Shown: positions 1 through 4,816, numbered from the stretch's first letter. The stretch is 10,588 nt of DNA from a virus (IMGVR_UViG_2690316175_000006), one strand, 5' to 3'. The notes: generated from the sequence alone by a model not told the origin. Program-made: numbers and translations.

Positions 1-47
1 TTAAAAAAAGAACAAATGGTAGTGTCCGCTATTGCCAGTACACCTCA
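1..47 (+). mobile_element. Terminal 47 bp (orfB stop codon plus right inverted repeat) of an IS3-family insertion sequence whose body lies left of the window
   Basis: Positions 1-47 are the exact reverse complement of 8520-8566, the orfB-proximal end of the internal IS copy; ends ...CACCTCA. Confidence 0.7.
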
Positions 48-48
48 T

Positions 49-246
49 CCATCACCGAAAAAAATTGGCTTTTACACCATTGGCGATAAAAGCATTTACC
101 TGTATGACCTACGCCGCATGGATGAAATCATGGAGGCTCTTGATAATCGTTCGTCGATGGATTGGTGTGTTGCTGTTCATGATATGAATGCAGGGTTTGA
201 TGAAAAGATTTTGTTCCCCTCATCAGTTGAAAGCACTGCGGGTTAA
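49..246 (+). CDS. 3' fragment of a gene interrupted by the IS; hypothetical protein
   Basis: Frame is open from the IS junction to TAA at 244-246 with no credible upstream start or RBS; stop is followed by AGGAG for the next gene. Confidence 0.3.
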   Translation, partial: PSPKKIGFYTIGDKSIYLYDLRRMDEIMEALDNRSSMDWCVAVHDMNAGFDEKILFPSSVESTAG

Positions 247-256
247 GGAGTAACAC

Positions 257-424
257 ATGACCACTATTACCAAAGAACGTATTGAATTGTTCATTAAAAA
301 CCCGCTTGAAAACGGGCTTACCCGTGGTGAACAAATGGAACTGGCACGGATTGCGCTGGCATCGCTGGAAGCAGAGCCGGTTGTGTTCTGGTTTGAAAAA
401 TATCAAGAAGGGGCTACGGCATGA
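257..424 (+). CDS. Hypothetical 55-aa protein, apparently chimeric
   Basis: ATG 6 nt after AGGAG; N-terminus MTTITKER...ALASLEAEP matches the 1540 gene, C-terminus [15 protein letters not shown] matches the 1433 ORF; stop overlaps next start (ATGA). Confidence 0.5.
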
Positions 425-765
425 CGACTTTTACCAGAGAGCAGTTAATAGCTCACGCAGAGGAGACTATTGAAGCACAGAGACTGTGCATACCGGGCAC
501 AATCGACCATGACATCATCCGCACATATAAGATGGATATTGCTGTTCTGGAAATCGCACTGGTATCGCTGGCAGCAGAGCCAGCCGGTAAATTGCATGAA
601 TACAAACCAGTGGGATATCAGCGTCTGGTCGATGAGTTAACCATGCTGGTAAAGCAGTTAACCTGGCAACTGAGGAAAGCGAAGCCAGACTGCAAATTAC
701 CGGATAAGGCGATGAGTTATCTGGAGCGGAACGGACTGATAAGCGTGGAGGATATTTTACGATGA
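421..765 (+). CDS. Hypothetical lambdoid-prophage accessory protein (114 aa)
   Basis: ATG-initiated ORF with ATGA overlaps to the genes on both sides; N-terminal motif shared with the 257 and 1540 ORFs. Confidence 0.6.
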
Positions 766-845
766 CCTGGCCTGAAGCATTAACAACGGTAGGAATTGCG
801 ATGGCGGTGGCGCTGGTGGTGTATTCGATTTGCCGCTGGGGATAA
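762..845 (+). CDS. 27-aa hydrophobic peptide with one predicted transmembrane helix ([27 protein letters not shown])
   Basis: ATGA overlap with upstream gene; near-identical copy at 2567-2650 with only a few nucleotide changes. Confidence 0.45.
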
Positions 846-898
846 AAACGGTTTGCGGGAAAAGGAGAGTTAAGTAGAATTGCAGCGGGTGCTTGAGG

Positions 899-935
899 CT
901 ATCTGTCTCAGGCATGAACACCAAAAGGCAGATAG
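899..935 (+). promoter_or_regulatory. hok leader stem-loop (10-bp stem, 17-nt loop), copy 1
   Basis: ctatctgtct pairs with aggcagatag (one G-U); the paralogous stem at 2868-2903 differs at two positions that both preserve pairing. Confidence 0.45.
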
Positions 936-999
936 AGAAAAGCCCCAGTTAACATTACGCGTCCGGCAAGACGCTTAACATTAATCTGAGGCTCAATCT

Positions 1000-1212
1000 A
1001 TGAACGGCAAATCTAGGTTAGCCTCTTACGTGCCGAAAGGCAAGGAGAAGCAGGCTATGAAGCAGCAAAAGGCGATGTTAATCGCCCTGATCGTCATCTG
1101 TTTAACCGTCATAGTGACGGCACTGGTAACGAGGAAAGACCTCTGCGAGGTACGAATTCGAACCGGCCAGACGGAGGTCGCTGTCTTCACAGCTTACGAA
1201 CCTGAGGAGTAA
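1000..1212 (+). CDS. mok: Mok-like leader ORF in frame with and containing hok (70 aa), copy 1
   Basis: Upstream in-frame ATG giving an N-terminally extended Hok, as recalled for chromosomal mok/hok loci. Confidence 0.45.
   Translation: MNGKSRLASYVPKGKEKQAMKQQKAMLIALIVICLTVIVTALVTRKDLCEVRIRTGQTEVAVFTAYEPEE
1057..1212 (+). CDS. hok: Hok/Gef-family type I toxin, 51 aa, HokD/RelF-like, copy 1
   Basis: MKQQKAMLIALIVICLTVIVTALVTRKDLCEVRIRTGQTEVAVFTAYEPEE: single TM helix plus conserved RKDLCEV...TEVAVFTAYE core; AGGAG 9 nt upstream. Confidence 0.85.
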   Translation: MKQQKAMLIALIVICLTVIVTALVTRKDLCEVRIRTGQTEVAVFTAYEPEE

Positions 1213-1280
1213 GAGACCAGGCGGGGGAGAAATCCCTCGCCACCTCTGATGGGTCAGGCATCCTCAATGCACCCACACTT

Positions 1281-1307
1281 AACCCGCTTCGGCGGGTTTT
1301 TGTTTTT
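1281..1307 (+). terminator. Rho-independent terminator of hok copy 1
   Basis: aacccgc-ttcg-gcgggtt hairpin followed by a T-run. Confidence 0.7.
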
Positions 1308-1320
1308 ATTTTCAACGCGT

Positions 1321-1350
1321 TTGAAGTTTTAGATGGTGCCGGAATAGAAT
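1321..1350 (+). promoter_or_regulatory. Candidate sigma70 promoter downstream of hok copy 1
   Basis: TTGAAG-18 nt-TAGAAT; the -35 lies within inverted half-sites TTCAA/TTGAA; identical copy at 3289-3318. Confidence 0.4.
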
Positions 1351-1432
1351 CAAAAATACTTAAGTAGCGCGCAGGGAGAAGAGGGATGGACCCCGAACAG
1401 GGGAGTGCTATTTATCTGGAAGGATTCTGTTG

Positions 1433-1543
1433 ATNCTTGCGTCCGGGAAAGGCAAAGCGCTGGTTCGTATGGGATTGGTTGAAATGAAATCTGACCCGGT
1501 TGTGTTCTGGTTTGAAAAATATCAAGAAGGGGCTACGGCATGA
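1433..1543 (+). CDS. 36-aa ORF, valid only if the ambiguous base at 1435 is G
   Basis: ATN after GGAAGG RBS; the paralogous position 3401-3403 is ATG; ends ...[15 protein letters not shown] with ATGA overlap to the 1540 gene. Confidence 0.3.
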   Translation, partial: XLASGKGKALVRMGLVEMKSDPVVFWFEKYQEGATA

Positions 1544-2205
1544 CCACTATTACCAAAGAGCGACTGCAATGGCTGGCTAACATTTCTGGCCGCGATGATA
1601 TTGACGATATAGACGGCGGTGAAATTCGTGAACTGGCGCTTATCGCTCTGGCATCACTGGAAGCAGAGCCTGTAGCGGAATGCATTGTTGAAGATGGGGG
1701 CATGTGTATTGACGGGTTCGGTGAGTATGTGGGTCACTCGCTGCCTGATGGAATGCATGAGCTTTATGCTGCCCCGCGAATGCGACAACCTGATGGATGG
1801 AAAGCCGTAGCTGTAGCGTGGAAGGTGACGTTTACTCAAGTTGACCAGGAATCTAATACGTTCACTGCTATATATTTTGACAAAGCGGAAGTTGAGTGTT
1901 GGGTACGACTGCATAAAGCATGTGATTTTCGGGCAGATATAACACCGCTTTACGCAGCGCCGGCAGTGCCGGTTGCAGTAAACGACGACATGGCTTACGC
2001 ATTCCATCACGCACTGTCAGATTCATCGCTTGGCTCTGATGAAATCGAAGAAATTAAAACCGGTTTGCGTGCTGCCTTTGCCAACGTCACTATCCAACCA
2101 GAGCCGATAGTGCCGGATGAAATCGGGCCAAACGATAGTAATACGTTTGATTATGTTGATGGCTGGAACGCCTGCCGCGCTGCCATGCTTAAGGGAGATA
2201 AATAA
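1540..2205 (+). CDS. Hypothetical lambdoid-prophage accessory protein (221 aa)
   Basis: ATG-initiated ORF, coupled at both ends (ATGA upstream, TAATG downstream). Confidence 0.65.
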   Translation: MTTITKERLQWLANISGRDDIDDIDGGEIRELALIALASLEAEPVAECIVEDGGMCIDGFGEYVGHSLPDGMHELYAAPRMRQPDGWKAVAVAWKVTFTQVDQESNTFTAIYFDKAEVECWVRLHKACDFRADITPLYAAPAVPVAVNDDMAYAFHHALSDSSLGSDEIEEIKTGLRAAFANVTIQPEPIVPDEIGPNDSNTFDYVDGWNACRAAMLKGDK

Positions 2206-2570
2206 TGATTAATCGAACCAAACTGGAGCACATTCTCGAATATGCCAGGCAGCAGAAATGTATTGGGCAACTTTGTAAAATTCCACCAGGAGATATGGTT
2301 GAAATCGTGGAAATGGCCATGCGTAAGGCTGGCAACTCTCCGGTAGCTCCGGCTGGCTGGATAAGCTGTAGTGATGCAGTTCCTGCTGAATATTGCGATG
2401 TGATTCTTCTCGATGATCTCGGGAATGTATTCCCCGGTTCCTGGGATAAGGTTTTTTGCCCCACTCGTGGCGGGAATAAGATGGCTTTTGTGGACAAAGA
2501 CGGCGTTGAAGTAGAGAGCTCAACTCACTGGATGCCGCTACCGGAACCACCGCAGGAGGTGAATCAATGA
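2205..2570 (+). CDS. Hypothetical phage protein (121 aa), DUF551-like
   Basis: GGGAG RBS; C-terminal ...STHWMPLPEPP resembles the DUF551 phage family from memory, not verified. Confidence 0.55.
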   Translation: MINRTKLEHILEYARQQKCIGQLCKIPPGDMVEIVEMAMRKAGNSPVAPAGWISCSDAVPAEYCDVILLDDLGNVFPGSWDKVFCPTRGGNKMAFVDKDGVEVESSTHWMPLPEPPQEVNQ

Positions 2571-2650
2571 CCTGGCCTGAGGCATTCACCACGGTAGGAA
2601 TTGCGATGGCGGTGGCGCTGGTGGTGTATTCGATTTGCCGTTGGGGTTAA
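2567..2650 (+). CDS. 27-aa hydrophobic peptide, second copy ([27 protein letters not shown])
   Basis: ATGA overlap with the upstream gene; paralog of 762-845. Confidence 0.45.
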   Translation: MTWPEAFTTVGIAMAVALVVYSICRWG

Positions 2651-2655
2651 CAAAC

Positions 2656-2688
2656 AAAAACCCCGGATTGATGGTCCGGGGTTTTTGA
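2656..2688. terminator. Bidirectional rho-independent terminator
   Basis: A-run, ccccgga-ttgatgg-tccgggg hairpin, T-run. Confidence 0.65.
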
Positions 2689-2867
2689 AGGAAACAAAAC
2701 AGAAACAGCAATTGCCGTTACCTGTTGTTACCATGGCAAGTAAACGTATCTCAGGCGAGCGCATTGCGCCGTTCTGACGCAGATAAACTAGCCTGGATAG
2801 ATGGTGCTGGCAATAAAAAATAGCGTTTTCTTATCGGTGTCGGTAAGATTGCTGCGGGTGCTTGAGG

Positions 2868-2903
2868 CTGTCTGCCTCGGGTATGTCACTGTAAGGCAGA
2901 CAG
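2868..2903 (+). promoter_or_regulatory. hok leader stem-loop (perfect 10-bp stem), copy 2
   Basis: ctgtctgcct pairs with aggcagacag; covaries with the copy 1 stem. Confidence 0.45.
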
Positions 2904-2967
2904 AGAAAAGCCCCAGTTAACATTACGCGTCCTGCAAGACGCTTAACATTAATCTGAGGCCCAATCT

Positions 2968-3180
2968 ATGTCTCACAAATGTAGGTTAGCCTCTTACGTG
3001 CCGAAAGGCAAGGAGAAGCAGGCTATGAAGCAGCAAAAGGCGATGTTAATCGCCCTGATCGTCATCTGTTTAACCGTCATAGTGACGGCACTGGTAACGA
3101 GGAAAGACCTCTGCGAGGTACGAATTCGAACCGGCCAGACGGAGGTCGCTGTCTTCACAGCTTACGAACCTGAGGAGTAA
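2968..3180 (+). CDS. mok: Mok-like leader ORF in frame with hok (70 aa), copy 2
   Basis: Same architecture as 1000-1212; codons 2-5 differ (SHKC vs NGKS). Confidence 0.45.
   Translation: MSHKCRLASYVPKGKEKQAMKQQKAMLIALIVICLTVIVTALVTRKDLCEVRIRTGQTEVAVFTAYEPEE
3025..3180 (+). CDS. hok: Hok/Gef-family type I toxin, 51 aa, copy 2
   Basis: ORF identical to 1057-1212. Confidence 0.85.
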   Translation: MKQQKAMLIALIVICLTVIVTALVTRKDLCEVRIRTGQTEVAVFTAYEPEE

Positions 3181-3248
3181 GAGACCAGGCGGGGGAGAAA
3201 TCCCTCGCCACCTCTGATGGGTCAGGCATCCTCAATGCACCCACACTT

Positions 3249-3275
3249 AACCCGCTTCGGCGGGTTTTTGTTTTT
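3249..3275 (+). terminator. Rho-independent terminator of hok copy 2
   Basis: Identical hairpin and T-run to 1281-1307. Confidence 0.7.
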
Positions 3276-3288
3276 ATTTTCAACGCGT

Positions 3289-3318
3289 TTGAAGTTTTAG
3301 ATGGTGCCGGAATAGAAT
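3289..3318 (+). promoter_or_regulatory. Candidate sigma70 promoter downstream of hok copy 2
   Basis: TTGAAG-18 nt-TAGAAT, identical to 1321-1350. Confidence 0.4.
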
Positions 3319-3400
3319 CAAAAATACTTAAGTAGCGCGCAGGGAGAAGAGGGATGGACCCCGAACAGGGGAGTGCTATTTATCTGGAAGGATTCTGTTG

Positions 3401-3756
3401 ATGAAAATCGAAGAATTACGTGAAATTTTTAGTGAAGATGGCCTCTATACTGTGCGCGTTGAGAATGGCGCTATTGTCAGCCACTGCCTTCCAGACTACA
3501 CAATTCTGATAATTCAGCCGTCTTTGCCAGCAGGCACGGGCGGCGCTCTCACGCATTTAAATCTGATTGGTACCAGCATCCCCCATGCACTGAAGAACAG
3601 GCCGAATGGCTCATTCAGTGTTACCGCAGGCGCGGATGCGAGGTTAAAAAAGCCCTTAGCCTCGACTACCGTCACTGGATAATCTCCGTCAGGCTCCCTT
3701 ACTCCGAACGGCCAACGCGTCCGTCCCGCACATTCCAGCAACGGATCTGGAGGTAA
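3401..3756 (+). CDS. Hypothetical protein whose full length (about 118 aa) needs a -1 frameshift at 3646-3652; the 0-frame product ends at 3682
   Basis: ATG after GGAAGG RBS; A_AAA_AAG heptamer in the 0 frame; the -1 frame has no start codon, is open to TAA 3754-3756 and that stop is coupled to the next gene. Confidence 0.45.
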
Positions 3757-3757
3757 T

Positions 3758-4816
3758 GTGCGGGTATTACTTCGACCTGTTCTGGTACCGGAACTCGGTC
3801 TGGTTATCGTTAAGCCAGGCCGTGAATCAATGTCAGCATTCCATAACGGCAGAATACTGGTGGAGCCGGAACCAAAAAGCATGCGTAATCTGCCGTCCGG
3901 GGTCGTTCCTGCCGCTCGCCAGCCGCTGGTGGAAGACAAAACATTGCTGCCGTTTTTCAGTAACGCACGGGTGATTCGTGCTGCTGGTGGTGCTGGTGCA
4001 TTGTCTGACTGGCTGTTGCGCCATATTAAATCCTGCCAGTGGCCACACGGCGATTATCATCACAGCGAAACCGTCATTCACCGTTATGGTACCGGCGCAA
4101 TGGTGTTGTGCTGGCACTGCGACAACCAGCTGCGTGACCAGACATCCGAATCACTCGAGCAACTTGCTCATCAAAACCTGTCAGCATGGATGATTGACGT
4201 CATCGGTCACGCAATAAGCGGTACGCAGGAGCGTGAATTATCTCTGGCTGAATTATCCTGGTGGGCGGTCCGCAATCAGGTGGCGGACGCGCTACCGGAA
4301 GCGGTATTACGTCGTTCGCTGGGGTTGCGTGCGGAAAAAATTCGCTCTGTGTACAGTGAAAGCGACATCATACCGGGAGAGCAGACAGCCACCAGCATAC
4401 TGAAGCAGCGCACAAAAAATATTGCGTTACTGCCTCACGTCCACCAGCAACAGAACCCACCACAGGAAAAGACGGTGGTCAGCATTGCCGTTGATCCGGA
4501 GTCACCGGCTCAGTATCTCCAGCGCCAGAAATCACAACGGGAAGAGATGCCTGTATACACGCGCTGGGTAAAAACGCAGAAATGCATGACGTGTGGCAAT
4601 CAGGCAGATGATCCGCATCACATCATTGGTCATGGACTGGGAGGGATGGGAACAAAGGCTGATGATTTGTTTGTTATTCCGTTATGCCGTAAATGCCGTA
4701 ACGAACTACATGCCGGAGTAAAAGATTTTGAAGAGAAACACGGCAGTCAGCTGTTGTTGCTGATTCGTTTTTTAATGCACGCGAGAAATTCGGGTGTTCT
4801 GAAGTGGAAAGCATAA
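3758..4816 (+). CDS. DUF968-like prophage protein with a C-terminal HNH/zinc-ribbon-like motif (YdfU-like)
   Basis: GTG start 5 nt after GGAGG; C-terminus CMTCGNQADDPHHIIGHG...LCRKCRNELH; sits just upstream of rusA and Q as in lambdoid prophages. Confidence 0.6.
   Translation: MRVLLRPVLVPELGLVIVKPGRESMSAFHNGRILVEPEPKSMRNLPSGVVPAARQPLVEDKTLLPFFSNARVIRAAGGAGALSDWLLRHIKSCQWPHGDYHHSETVIHRYGTGAMVLCWHCDNQLRDQTSESLEQLAHQNLSAWMIDVIGHAISGTQERELSLAELSWWAVRNQVADALPEAVLRRSLGLRAEKIRSVYSESDIIPGEQTATSILKQRTKNIALLPHVHQQQNPPQEKTVVSIAVDPESPAQYLQRQKSQREEMPVYTRWVKTQKCMTCGNQADDPHHIIGHGLGGMGTKADDLFVIPLCRKCRNELHAGVKDFEEKHGSQLLLLIRFLMHARNSGVLKWKA

Follow-up and report, generated by a model that had tools for sequence, protein, structure and literature searches.

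The viral DNA IMGVR_UViG_2690316175_000006 (10,588 nucleotides; this whole stretch is called the window, and positions are counted on it unless stated otherwise) displays two hok/sok toxin-antitoxin cassettes in tandem. We consider it likely that these are hokW/sokW-type cassettes of two separate prophage loci, that a mis-joined scaffold brought them together, and that their leaders are genuine alleles. Both cassettes are alleles of the prophage hokW/sokW group (RefSeq 'HokD'), i.e., of an already known type I toxin-antitoxin family. The two loci are denoted X and Y. Locus X comprises window 1-1434 and the sequence from 3403 onward; locus Y is the source of window 1436-3080. As read from the alignments, the window is X, followed by an N, by 1.6 kb of Y, and by X again from inside a 99-bp repeat. 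On these comparisons the tandem layout and the identical toxin are most likely an assembly artefact and not a feature of the genome.

The two copies in the window were aligned locally. Positions 879-1434 pair with 2848-3402, with 19 differences (18 substitutions and one 1-nt insertion or deletion). All 19 are confined to 884-1013 (2853-2981), and the 421 bp of 1014-1434 and 2982-3402 are free of differences. The chance that 19 random differences on 556 aligned positions all fall within the first 135 is ~1e-12. An earlier reading of the sequence alone had noted roughly 20 leader differences ahead of an identical downstream region, as well as divergent Mok codons 2-5. Within the window both statements hold; copy 1 has the Mok N-terminus MNGKS, copy 2 has MSHKC. 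The window contains Ns at 1435, 7943-7989, and 9658, thus its source is a draft scaffold. The N at 1435 is the exact end of the identity between the copies.

Finished genomes present a different picture. Searches with exact window proteins lead to complete chromosomes of 4.8-4.9 Mb which are rich in the insertion sequences (IS) IS1 and IS600; one of them, CP019689 (Shigella sonnei 75/02; PMC5447701), contains locus Y. Window 1-1434 corresponds to positions 2712-4145 of the finished X locus L131 at 100.000% identity, and window 3403 resumes at L131 4146; the same is true for L020. Because finished genomes continue directly from 1434 to 3403, locus X has one cassette. Its order is IS600, three small open reading frames (ORFs), the cassette with leader 1, Rem, DUF968, RusA, Q, a methylase, tRNAs, and IS600. 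One hok gene each was found in ten finished-size X loci returned by the searches and in L020, and in five the direct continuation from 1434 to 3403 was seen at base level. Locus Y has the order DUF4014, an intact HNH endonuclease gene, an ORF of 221 aa, DUF551, an ORF of 27 aa, the cassette with leader 2, and IS1. X and Y reside 120-150 kb apart in the same chromosomes, e.g., at 1.858 Mb (X) and 1.981 Mb (Y) in CP104423.1 and at 2.49 Mb (X) and 2.37 Mb (Y) in LR213449.1. The adjacency of two cassettes with an identical toxin, as claimed by the sequence-only reading, does not survive this comparison: finished S. sonnei chromosomes have one cassette per locus, and the genuine second toxin ends ...IGQTEVAVFVDYESRE, not ...TGQTEVAVFTAYEPEE.

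The base-level comparison with locus Y defines the segments of the window as follows.

1435, no strand: single N, scaffold join of the end of an X contig to a locus-Y fragment which begins inside the HNH endonuclease gene (alignment).
1436-3080, plus strand: locus-Y fragment, comprising the last 110 bp of the HNH gene, the 221-aa ORF, DUF551, the 27-aa membrane ORF, and a spacer (0 mismatches to the Y loci L114 and L122).
1436-3080, plus strand, 3' end of the same fragment: hok/sok leader of Y and the first 56 nt of hok (gene content).
2982-3080, plus strand: 99-bp exact X/Y repeat in which the sequence switches from Y to X; Y-specific bases end at 2981 and X-specific ones set in at 3081 (alignment).
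3081-3402, plus strand: second copy of X (equal to 1113-1434), not the genuine 3' half of Y (23 differences from Y, X-only variants).

Over the 1645 bp of window 1436-3080 there is not a single mismatch to Y in L114 and L122. In 3081-3269, by contrast, 23 differences from Y are counted in both, and L113 shows 22 of these plus one leader change. Five further chromosomes gave the same BLAST pattern as these three Y loci. The C-terminus of the genuine Y toxin reads ...RIRIGQTEVAVFVDYESRE, that of the window's second toxin ...RIRTGQTEVAVFTAYEPEE. The variants at 3126, 3220, 3236, and 3243 occur, among the alleles compared, only in X of this lineage. The longest exact stretch which the genuine X and Y loci have in common is the 99 bp of 1014-1112, i.e., 2982-3080. 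Since the N lies where the identity ends and the hok 3' halves of the genuine loci differ at 23 positions, the identical 421 bp, with toxin, terminator, and downstream promoter, are most likely one stretch written twice.

We propose that short reads would have been unable to resolve the 99-bp repeat. The genuine 3' piece of Y measures only about 190 bp before the high-copy IS1 and could easily have been lost; the Y contig would then have been extended into X sequence, and the scaffolder would have attached it behind the X contig through a single N. No junction other than the N at 1435 is non-homologous. A query of window 700-3500 found no record with both cassettes in 5426 complete E. coli genomes and a phage collection; its best match covered 84% and contained a single cassette. 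The junction at 1435 was likewise absent from the 5426 genomes, where a short query matched only 1436-1545 (the 3' end of HNH), and a pattern scan for it gave 0 matches in the GTDB species representatives.

Alternatively, the tandem could be real in this strain, a Y fragment from mid-HNH to leader 2 having been inserted behind X. This would require an illegitimate join of 1434 to 1436 and a homologous exchange within the 99 bp, and would create a prophage with one toxin sequence and two leaders. The window is indeed continuous except for one N, and a switch within a 99-bp exact repeat would be the expected outcome of homologous recombination as well. Furthermore, X and Y have the same orientation in those records in which neither locus is shown reversed, therefore unequal exchange could make the junction of leader 2 with the X tail. 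Nor is there a repeat edge to account for a contig break at 1436. Nevertheless, we regard a real tandem as improbable. The only non-homologous junction is precisely the N; junction and layout are missing from the 5426 complete genomes, and the junction from the GTDB representatives as well; the ten finished-size X loci and L020 have a single hok gene each. The 221-aa gene of Y is found mostly on contigs of 2-5 kb in public assemblies, rarely on contigs of 10-20 kb, and the same scaffold has a second duplication across a gap. Three points speak against a mis-joined scaffold: the chimera is deduced from finished genomes of other strains; no repeat boundary marks the mid-HNH start of the Y fragment among the loci compared; and the exact stop of the first X copy at 1434 is not explained by any repeat edge. 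In the finished genomes the equivalent of window 1436 is immediately preceded by the final C of a GAATTC (EcoRI) site (L114 3357-3396, intact HNH), which may be a coincidence.

Two tRNA-Arg(tct) genes with 1 mismatch (7860-7936 and 7999-8075) flank the 47-N gap of the scaffold at 7943-7989, and in finished X loci both align to one and the same site; the usual tRNA set is Met/Ile(cat), Arg(tcg), and Arg(tct). Probably, the doubled tRNA-Arg(tct) arose from overlapping contig ends joined with a gap and is not a genuine fourth tRNA. Two STnc100 matches (RF02076; 8152-8341 with 123.6 bits and 9621-9809 with 81.6 bits) flank a complete IS600-like element at 8520-9657. The N at 9658 is located exactly at the end of this element; the sequence beyond is 99.5% identical to another prophage context (L015) and 98% to the copy upstream of the IS. 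Here, too, a scaffold join is probable, leading into a second prophage.

A 99-bp exact repeat in hok probably sufficed to splice two loci into an apparent duplicated toxin with swapped leaders. When such patterns appear in draft assemblies they should be compared with finished genomes before they are interpreted.

The assignment of both regions to hok/sok, made by the sequence-only reading, is well founded. Rfam RF01794 matches 887-1062 at 112.4 bits and 2856-3030 at 118.1 bits, both full-length and on the plus strand (gathering score 59), and both 70-aa Mok/Hok products (1000-1212, 2968-3180), like the genuine Y product, carry PF01848 (HOK_GEF) in precomputed tables; closeness to hokW-sokW is the third line of evidence. 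In each copy hok lies in frame inside mok, with starts at 1057 and 3025, and the mok ATG is within a predicted target hairpin (995-1019). The coding regions are:

1000-1212, plus strand: mok (70 codons) and, in the same frame, hok (51 codons, 1057-1212) of cassette X (ORF list, PF01848).
2856-3080, plus strand: genuine 5' part of the cassette Y hok mRNA, with a -10 box TAAGAT at 2844-2849, the mok start at 2968, and the hok start at 3025 (RF01794; 100% identity to complete genomes).

RF01794 bears the name of the 'sok' antitoxin, but its match extends across 157 model positions on the hok-sense strand; thus, it models the hok mRNA leader and not the antisense RNA of ~70 nt. The exact Mok/Hok proteins are widespread in public assemblies (18190 blocks for the product of 1000-1212, 4898 for that of 2968-3180). 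In the 5426 complete E. coli genomes the number of hok/sok places per genome has a median of 2 and a maximum of 12, and reviews likewise state up to 12 copies (PMC4147584).

The closest characterized relative is hokW-sokW of the Stx2 phage 933W and the Sakai prophage Sp5 (AF125520). It has the same architecture and, outside the variable patches, is nearly identical from the -10 box to the hok 3' untranslated region. Both cassettes share with it the first 44 Hok residues, the Sok promoter hexamers, and the setting in the nin region of a lambdoid prophage; in the window this region holds DUF551 genes, hok, DUF968 (NinG-like), RusA, Q, a DNA methylase, tRNAs, and IS600. Differences from 933W are located in the Hok C-terminus (VDYESEK in 933W, TAYEPEE in X, VDYESRE in genuine Y), in a block of the target loop and Sok tail (CTGAA, AACGG, and TCTCA, respectively), and in the predicted Sok, which differs from 933W sokW by 6 nt in X and by 7 nt in Y. 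hokW-sokW is a working type I toxin-antitoxin system in which Hok toxicity and rescue by Sok have been demonstrated and in which antitoxin activity requires a promoter located within mok (Takada et al., 2021; PMC8621323). For hokW a role in phage release after induction has been shown; the prophages of X and Y are defective.

The hok/sok (parB) system of plasmid R1 follows the same logic, i.e., tac/fbi and ucb/mok Shine-Dalgarno (SD) pairings, a metastable 5' hairpin, coupling of mok and hok, and a cis-antisense Sok over the mok start. HokW, which has the first 44 Hok residues in common with the present cassettes, is only 44% identical to R1 Hok (PMC8621323). In contrast to R1, mok is an in-frame N-terminal extension of hok in X and Y, and the setting is a prophage and not a plasmid. 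Many genes which match the cassettes are called 'type I toxin-antitoxin system toxin HokD' in RefSeq; hokD (relF) belongs to the K-12 Qin prophage. The K-12 hokD locus is not known to have the upstream mok/sok regulatory part, whereas in the X and Y cassettes the complete leader is present.

The antisense RNAs were located by transferring the Sok coordinates from the sokW misc_RNA annotation of phage 933W, whose 5' end is 7 nt downstream of the -10 box. The transfer agrees with the earlier suggestion that the diverged leader holds the antisense target, as 7 of the 19 differences are inside the predicted Sok. The alignment to hok/sok leaders which the sequence-only reading had recommended placed the predicted Sok at 938-1008 and 2906-2976; the putative promoter (1043-1015) was read from the sequence.

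938-1008, minus strand: predicted Sok X, 71 nt, with a free 5' tail of 14 nt followed by a long hairpin and a U tail, as in Sok Y; -29.9 kcal/mol (sokW transfer, fold).
2906-2976, minus strand: predicted Sok Y, which differs from Sok X at nt 2-6 (tail), 16 (stem), and 44 (loop) (sokW transfer, fold).
1015-1043, minus strand: putative Sok promoter with -35 TTGCCT (1043-1038), a 17-nt spacer, and -10 TAACCT (1020-1015) (read from the sequence).

The putative Sok promoter is identical in both cassettes. In sokW a mutated -10 box abolished antitoxin activity (PMC8621323). Two points limit the confidence in the RNA parts: the Sok ends and promoters depend on the transfer of the 933W annotation, and a consensus promoter scan flagged neither the hok nor the sok promoter, for which reason the placement of the hok promoter is inferential. 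Transcript ends and promoters of both cassettes are therefore to be taken as putative. The only consensus promoter match near the cassettes is TTGAAG-18-TAGAAT just 3' of the hok terminator (1321-1350, 3289-3318), facing the downstream Rem-like ORF; the overall number of such matches is at chance level. In three viral contigs with the same Hok (L050, L063, L091) the Sok-hairpin region (window 947-990) is 21 nt shorter and largely different in sequence, with matching changes in the hok-SD hairpin (GGACC...GGTC versus GTGCC...GGC). This is a second, more radical Sok variant.

Folds and energies of the RNAs are ViennaRNA predictions. The elements of the hok mRNA of cassette X are:

875-880, plus strand: putative hok promoter -10 box TAGAAT; the transcript start is taken as G887 (read from the sequence; RF01794 begins at 887).
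887-1305, plus strand: full-length hok mRNA with tac (887-898), ucb (940-946), mok SD (988-991), and dcb (1021-1025) (minimum free energy (MFE) fold, RF01794).
887-1305, plus strand, 3' elements of the same mRNA: fbi (1262-1274) and the terminator (1281-1298 plus T run) (MFE fold, terminator scan).
889-915, plus strand: metastable 5' hairpin of the nascent transcript, 889-899 with 905-915 (predicted fold).
899-935, plus strand: stable hairpin in the tac/ucb stem, 899-908 with 926-935, the site of compensatory changes (predicted fold).
995-1019, plus strand: Sok-target (sokT) hairpin around the mok start codon; its loop, 1003-1013, is a hypervariable patch (predicted fold, diversity).

The metastable hairpin has a predicted energy of -17.1 kcal/mol in X and -16.8 kcal/mol in Y. 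Around the hairpin 899-935 a tac/ucb stem is predicted, formed by 887-894 and 940-946. In the full-length MFE fold (887-1303) the 5' end (887-898) pairs with fbi (1262-1274), and 941-944 within ucb pairs with the mok SD region. For the genuine Y mRNA (L114 4817-5236) it is predicted that nt 1-12 pair with the CCUCAA(U/C)GCACCC box, as in X, and that the ucb-SD pairing exists as well. Thus, the metastable hairpin, the tac/ucb stem, and the tac-fbi and ucb-SD pairings are all predicted in X, in the window's Y, and in genuine Y. These folds match the scheme of the R1 hok mRNA as summarized in PMC9841398.

All 19 leader differences represent genuine allelic variation between X and Y, and those of the 5' hairpins either keep both alternative folds or sit in a loop. 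Position 884 is upstream of the presumed transcript start. Positions 901 and 933 are a compensatory pair. Positions 906, 910, and 913, in the 3' arm of the metastable hairpin, keep their pairs (G-U to G-C, U-A to U-G, and G-C to G-U, respectively), and 906 keeps its pair in the stable hairpin as well. The loop of the stable hairpin holds 917, 918, and 922-924. Further downstream, 965 falls in the Sok hairpin loop, and 993 turns an A-U pair of the Sok stem into G-U. The block 1003-1007 belongs to the target hairpin loop and corresponds to nt 2-6 of the Sok tail; 1013 is part of the target stem and lies upstream of the Sok start by 5 nt. The two pairing-preserving stem changes recognized by the sequence-only reading are confirmed as 901/933 (A-U to G-C) and 906/928 (U-G to C-G) in the 10-bp helix 899-908/926-935.

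Among 55 distinct leaders of the family, 605 of 605 cells of the metastable helix are standard pairs (100%). At its variable positions 906, 910, 913, and 915 the swaps are exclusively G-C/G-U or U-A/U-G. In the same 55 leaders the pair 901/933 is AU in 44, GC in 8, GU in 1, and another combination in 2, and at 906/928 34 leaders have CG and 21 have UG. Changes on both sides of a pair were found in 17 cells, compared with 2.1 expected from shuffles. The compensatory changes are real, recur across the family, and are demanded by the known multi-state structure. Coupled covariation in the hok family was reportedly described in 1997 by Gultyaev, Franch and Gerdes. At sokT a fixed-register stem model left 91% of the cells paired and other alleles pair in a shifted register; hence, we claim no covariation there. 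The genuine loci display a hok leader which varies while it keeps three folds that exclude one another. The diversity hotspot of the family is the part free of these fold constraints, namely the Sok tail with its target loop.

From these elements the following regulation would apply to each cassette of the two decayed lambdoid prophages which X and Y represent in S. sonnei. The hok mRNA would be weakly transcribed and very stable, with translation of hok, a 51-aa membrane toxin, requiring translation of mok. The opposite strand would supply a short, unstable Sok which covers the mok start region. In the nascent transcript the metastable hairpin (889-915) would hold the 5' end; in the complete mRNA the 5' end (tac) would pair with the 3' end (fbi). 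Trimming of the 3' end would permit a refolding which exposes the mok ribosome site and the target hairpin. The free 5' tail of Sok would then attack the target hairpin, followed by duplex formation and decay.

Can the two Sok RNAs tell the two mRNAs apart? The sequence-only reading had raised the possibility of antisense antitoxins which do not cross-react. As S. sonnei carries both cassettes in one cell, the question of Sok cross-talk is still meaningful. The predicted Sok X and Sok Y are distinguished by 7 of their 71 nt, and five of these form an unbroken block at nt 2-6 in the unpaired 14-nt tail. For the 14-nt tail duplex predicted energies are -23.0 and -21.8 kcal/mol in the cognate and -7.7 and -8.9 kcal/mol in the non-cognate combinations. 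The five-base block probably lowers, and may not abolish, the recognition of the non-cognate mRNA.

The diversity of the leader was examined in 80 viral contigs, for which an identical Hok was the sole criterion of choice; 77 of them have a homologous leader. In these 77 cassettes nucleotide diversity (pi) is 0.35 at 1003-1013, 0.26 at 993-1002, 0.03-0.1 in the other leader regions, and 0 in tac. At third-codon positions of hok it is 0.012, i.e., diversity in the target loop is about 30-fold higher. There are 14 loop alleles, which differ from each other by blocks of 3-5 adjacent bases. They are shuffled against the alleles of the 5' hairpin; L023, e.g., combines the X hairpin with the Y loop. 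This pattern suggests old alleles maintained by selection, or diversifying selection, and fits them better than drift. In the literature we found no explicit description of a hypervariable patch of Sok tail and target loop for prophage hok/sok loci. While the cassettes were already known, the patch appears to be an observation at the level of the family which goes beyond the original finding. A YUNR (U-turn) motif, known from the R1 literature and looked for by eye, was seen in Y (CUCA) and several other alleles and was unclear both in X and in the commonest allele; it was not used.

We tentatively advance the possibility that target loop and Sok 5' tail (1003-1013) are a specificity cassette, diversified by selection, which insulates the hok/sok modules of co-resident lambdoid prophages. 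If so, losing one prophage would still trigger its toxin despite a near-identical Sok made elsewhere in the cell. If the diversity sets antisense specificity, it would also explain how up to a dozen hok/sok copies exist in enterobacteria without mutual neutralisation, a question raised and not settled in reviews (PMC4147584). For X and Y themselves, a meaningful insulation is conceivable, at the most an even matter.

The competing explanation, according to which the leader differences are functionally neutral and either Sok silences both hok mRNAs, is a serious one which we rate somewhat below even. In a cis-antisense arrangement each mutation alters both RNAs in a complementary fashion, so unpaired loop and tail positions are free to drift. 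Non-cognate pairs remain complementary at 64 of 71 nt, which include 9 contiguous tail nt (7-15) and the whole hairpin, and the full duplex has a predicted energy of -113 to -118 kcal/mol; this weighs against specificity. So does the fact that one genome can carry two cassettes with an identical loop allele (L013/L014, L031/L032, L058/L081), from which it follows that divergence is not required for coexistence. The unbiased same-genome pairs number only two, one with the same and one with a different loop allele; the other same-allele pairs came from exact-protein searches and are biased. The allele frequencies of the sample predict a shared loop allele in a proportion of 0.13. The Mok N-terminus, which also differs, is not known to matter (PMC9841398). 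Neutrality, on the other hand, is at variance with a loop diversity about 30-fold above that of hok third-codon positions, with block-wise allele differences, and with the shuffling against the 5' hairpin. Discrimination elsewhere is accomplished by 3 nt in OrzO/OrzP (PMC3919570) or by short recognition domains in Sib/Ibs (PMC2943612). In K-12, none of the five chromosomal Sok RNAs silences R1 hok (PMC9841398), yet these homologues are much more diverged than X is from Y.

OrzO/OrzP (zorO/zorP; PMC3919570) and Sib/Ibs (PMC2943612), in which the choice of the repressed mRNA depends on a few nt of an unpaired recognition region, resemble X and Y in that near-identical toxin/antisense loci coexist in one genome; the 5-nt block of the Sok tail would be the discriminator. 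They are, however, unrelated toxin families in which discrimination was proven by experiment, whereas for X and Y it is a matter of predicted energies. Further, the Orz RNAs are trans-encoded and pair over 18 nt, whereas Sok is fully complementary across 71 nt. An adjacency like that of zor-orz is not seen in complete S. sonnei chromosomes, where X and Y are 120-150 kb apart; their adjacency in the window hangs on an N.

It is conceivable, if rather doubtful, that one or both cassettes are decayed remnants without killing or without regulation, and that the leader differences have no present function. Both loci lie within IS-riddled defective prophages, and degenerate chromosomal hok copies are noted in reviews (PMC4147584). 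In genuine Y the terminator stem has only 4 bp, shorter than in X, and is followed by IS1. A weakened terminator adjoined by IS1 counts against an active Y, which thus may not be fully functional. Decay is disfavoured by the intact mok-hok frames of both cassettes, by regulatory helices which are all intact and predicted to form, by Sok promoter hexamers equal to those of functional hokW/sokW-type cassettes, and by the conservation of the exact Mok/Hok proteins in thousands of assemblies. As to its position, IS1 is located directly 3' of the T run of the Y hok terminator (L114 5232-5249; the alignments of L113 and L122 end at the same point), and in several other Y loci IS1 genes come right after hok.

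Upstream of both cassettes a hydrophobic ORF of 27 codons (MTWPEA[L/F]...) is located at 762-845 and 2567-2650, with a start which overlaps the upstream stop (ATGA). The two copies differ by 5 bases; each of these is a third-codon position, and one amino acid is altered. It looks like an unannotated small membrane protein under purifying selection. The same ORF is also upstream of hokW in 933W, where the alignment begins at 762. Between the 27-aa ORF and leader 2 there is a strong terminator-like hairpin of 13 bp (2655-2687, minus strand), which is absent upstream of cassette X; given the T runs on both sides, it may be bidirectional.

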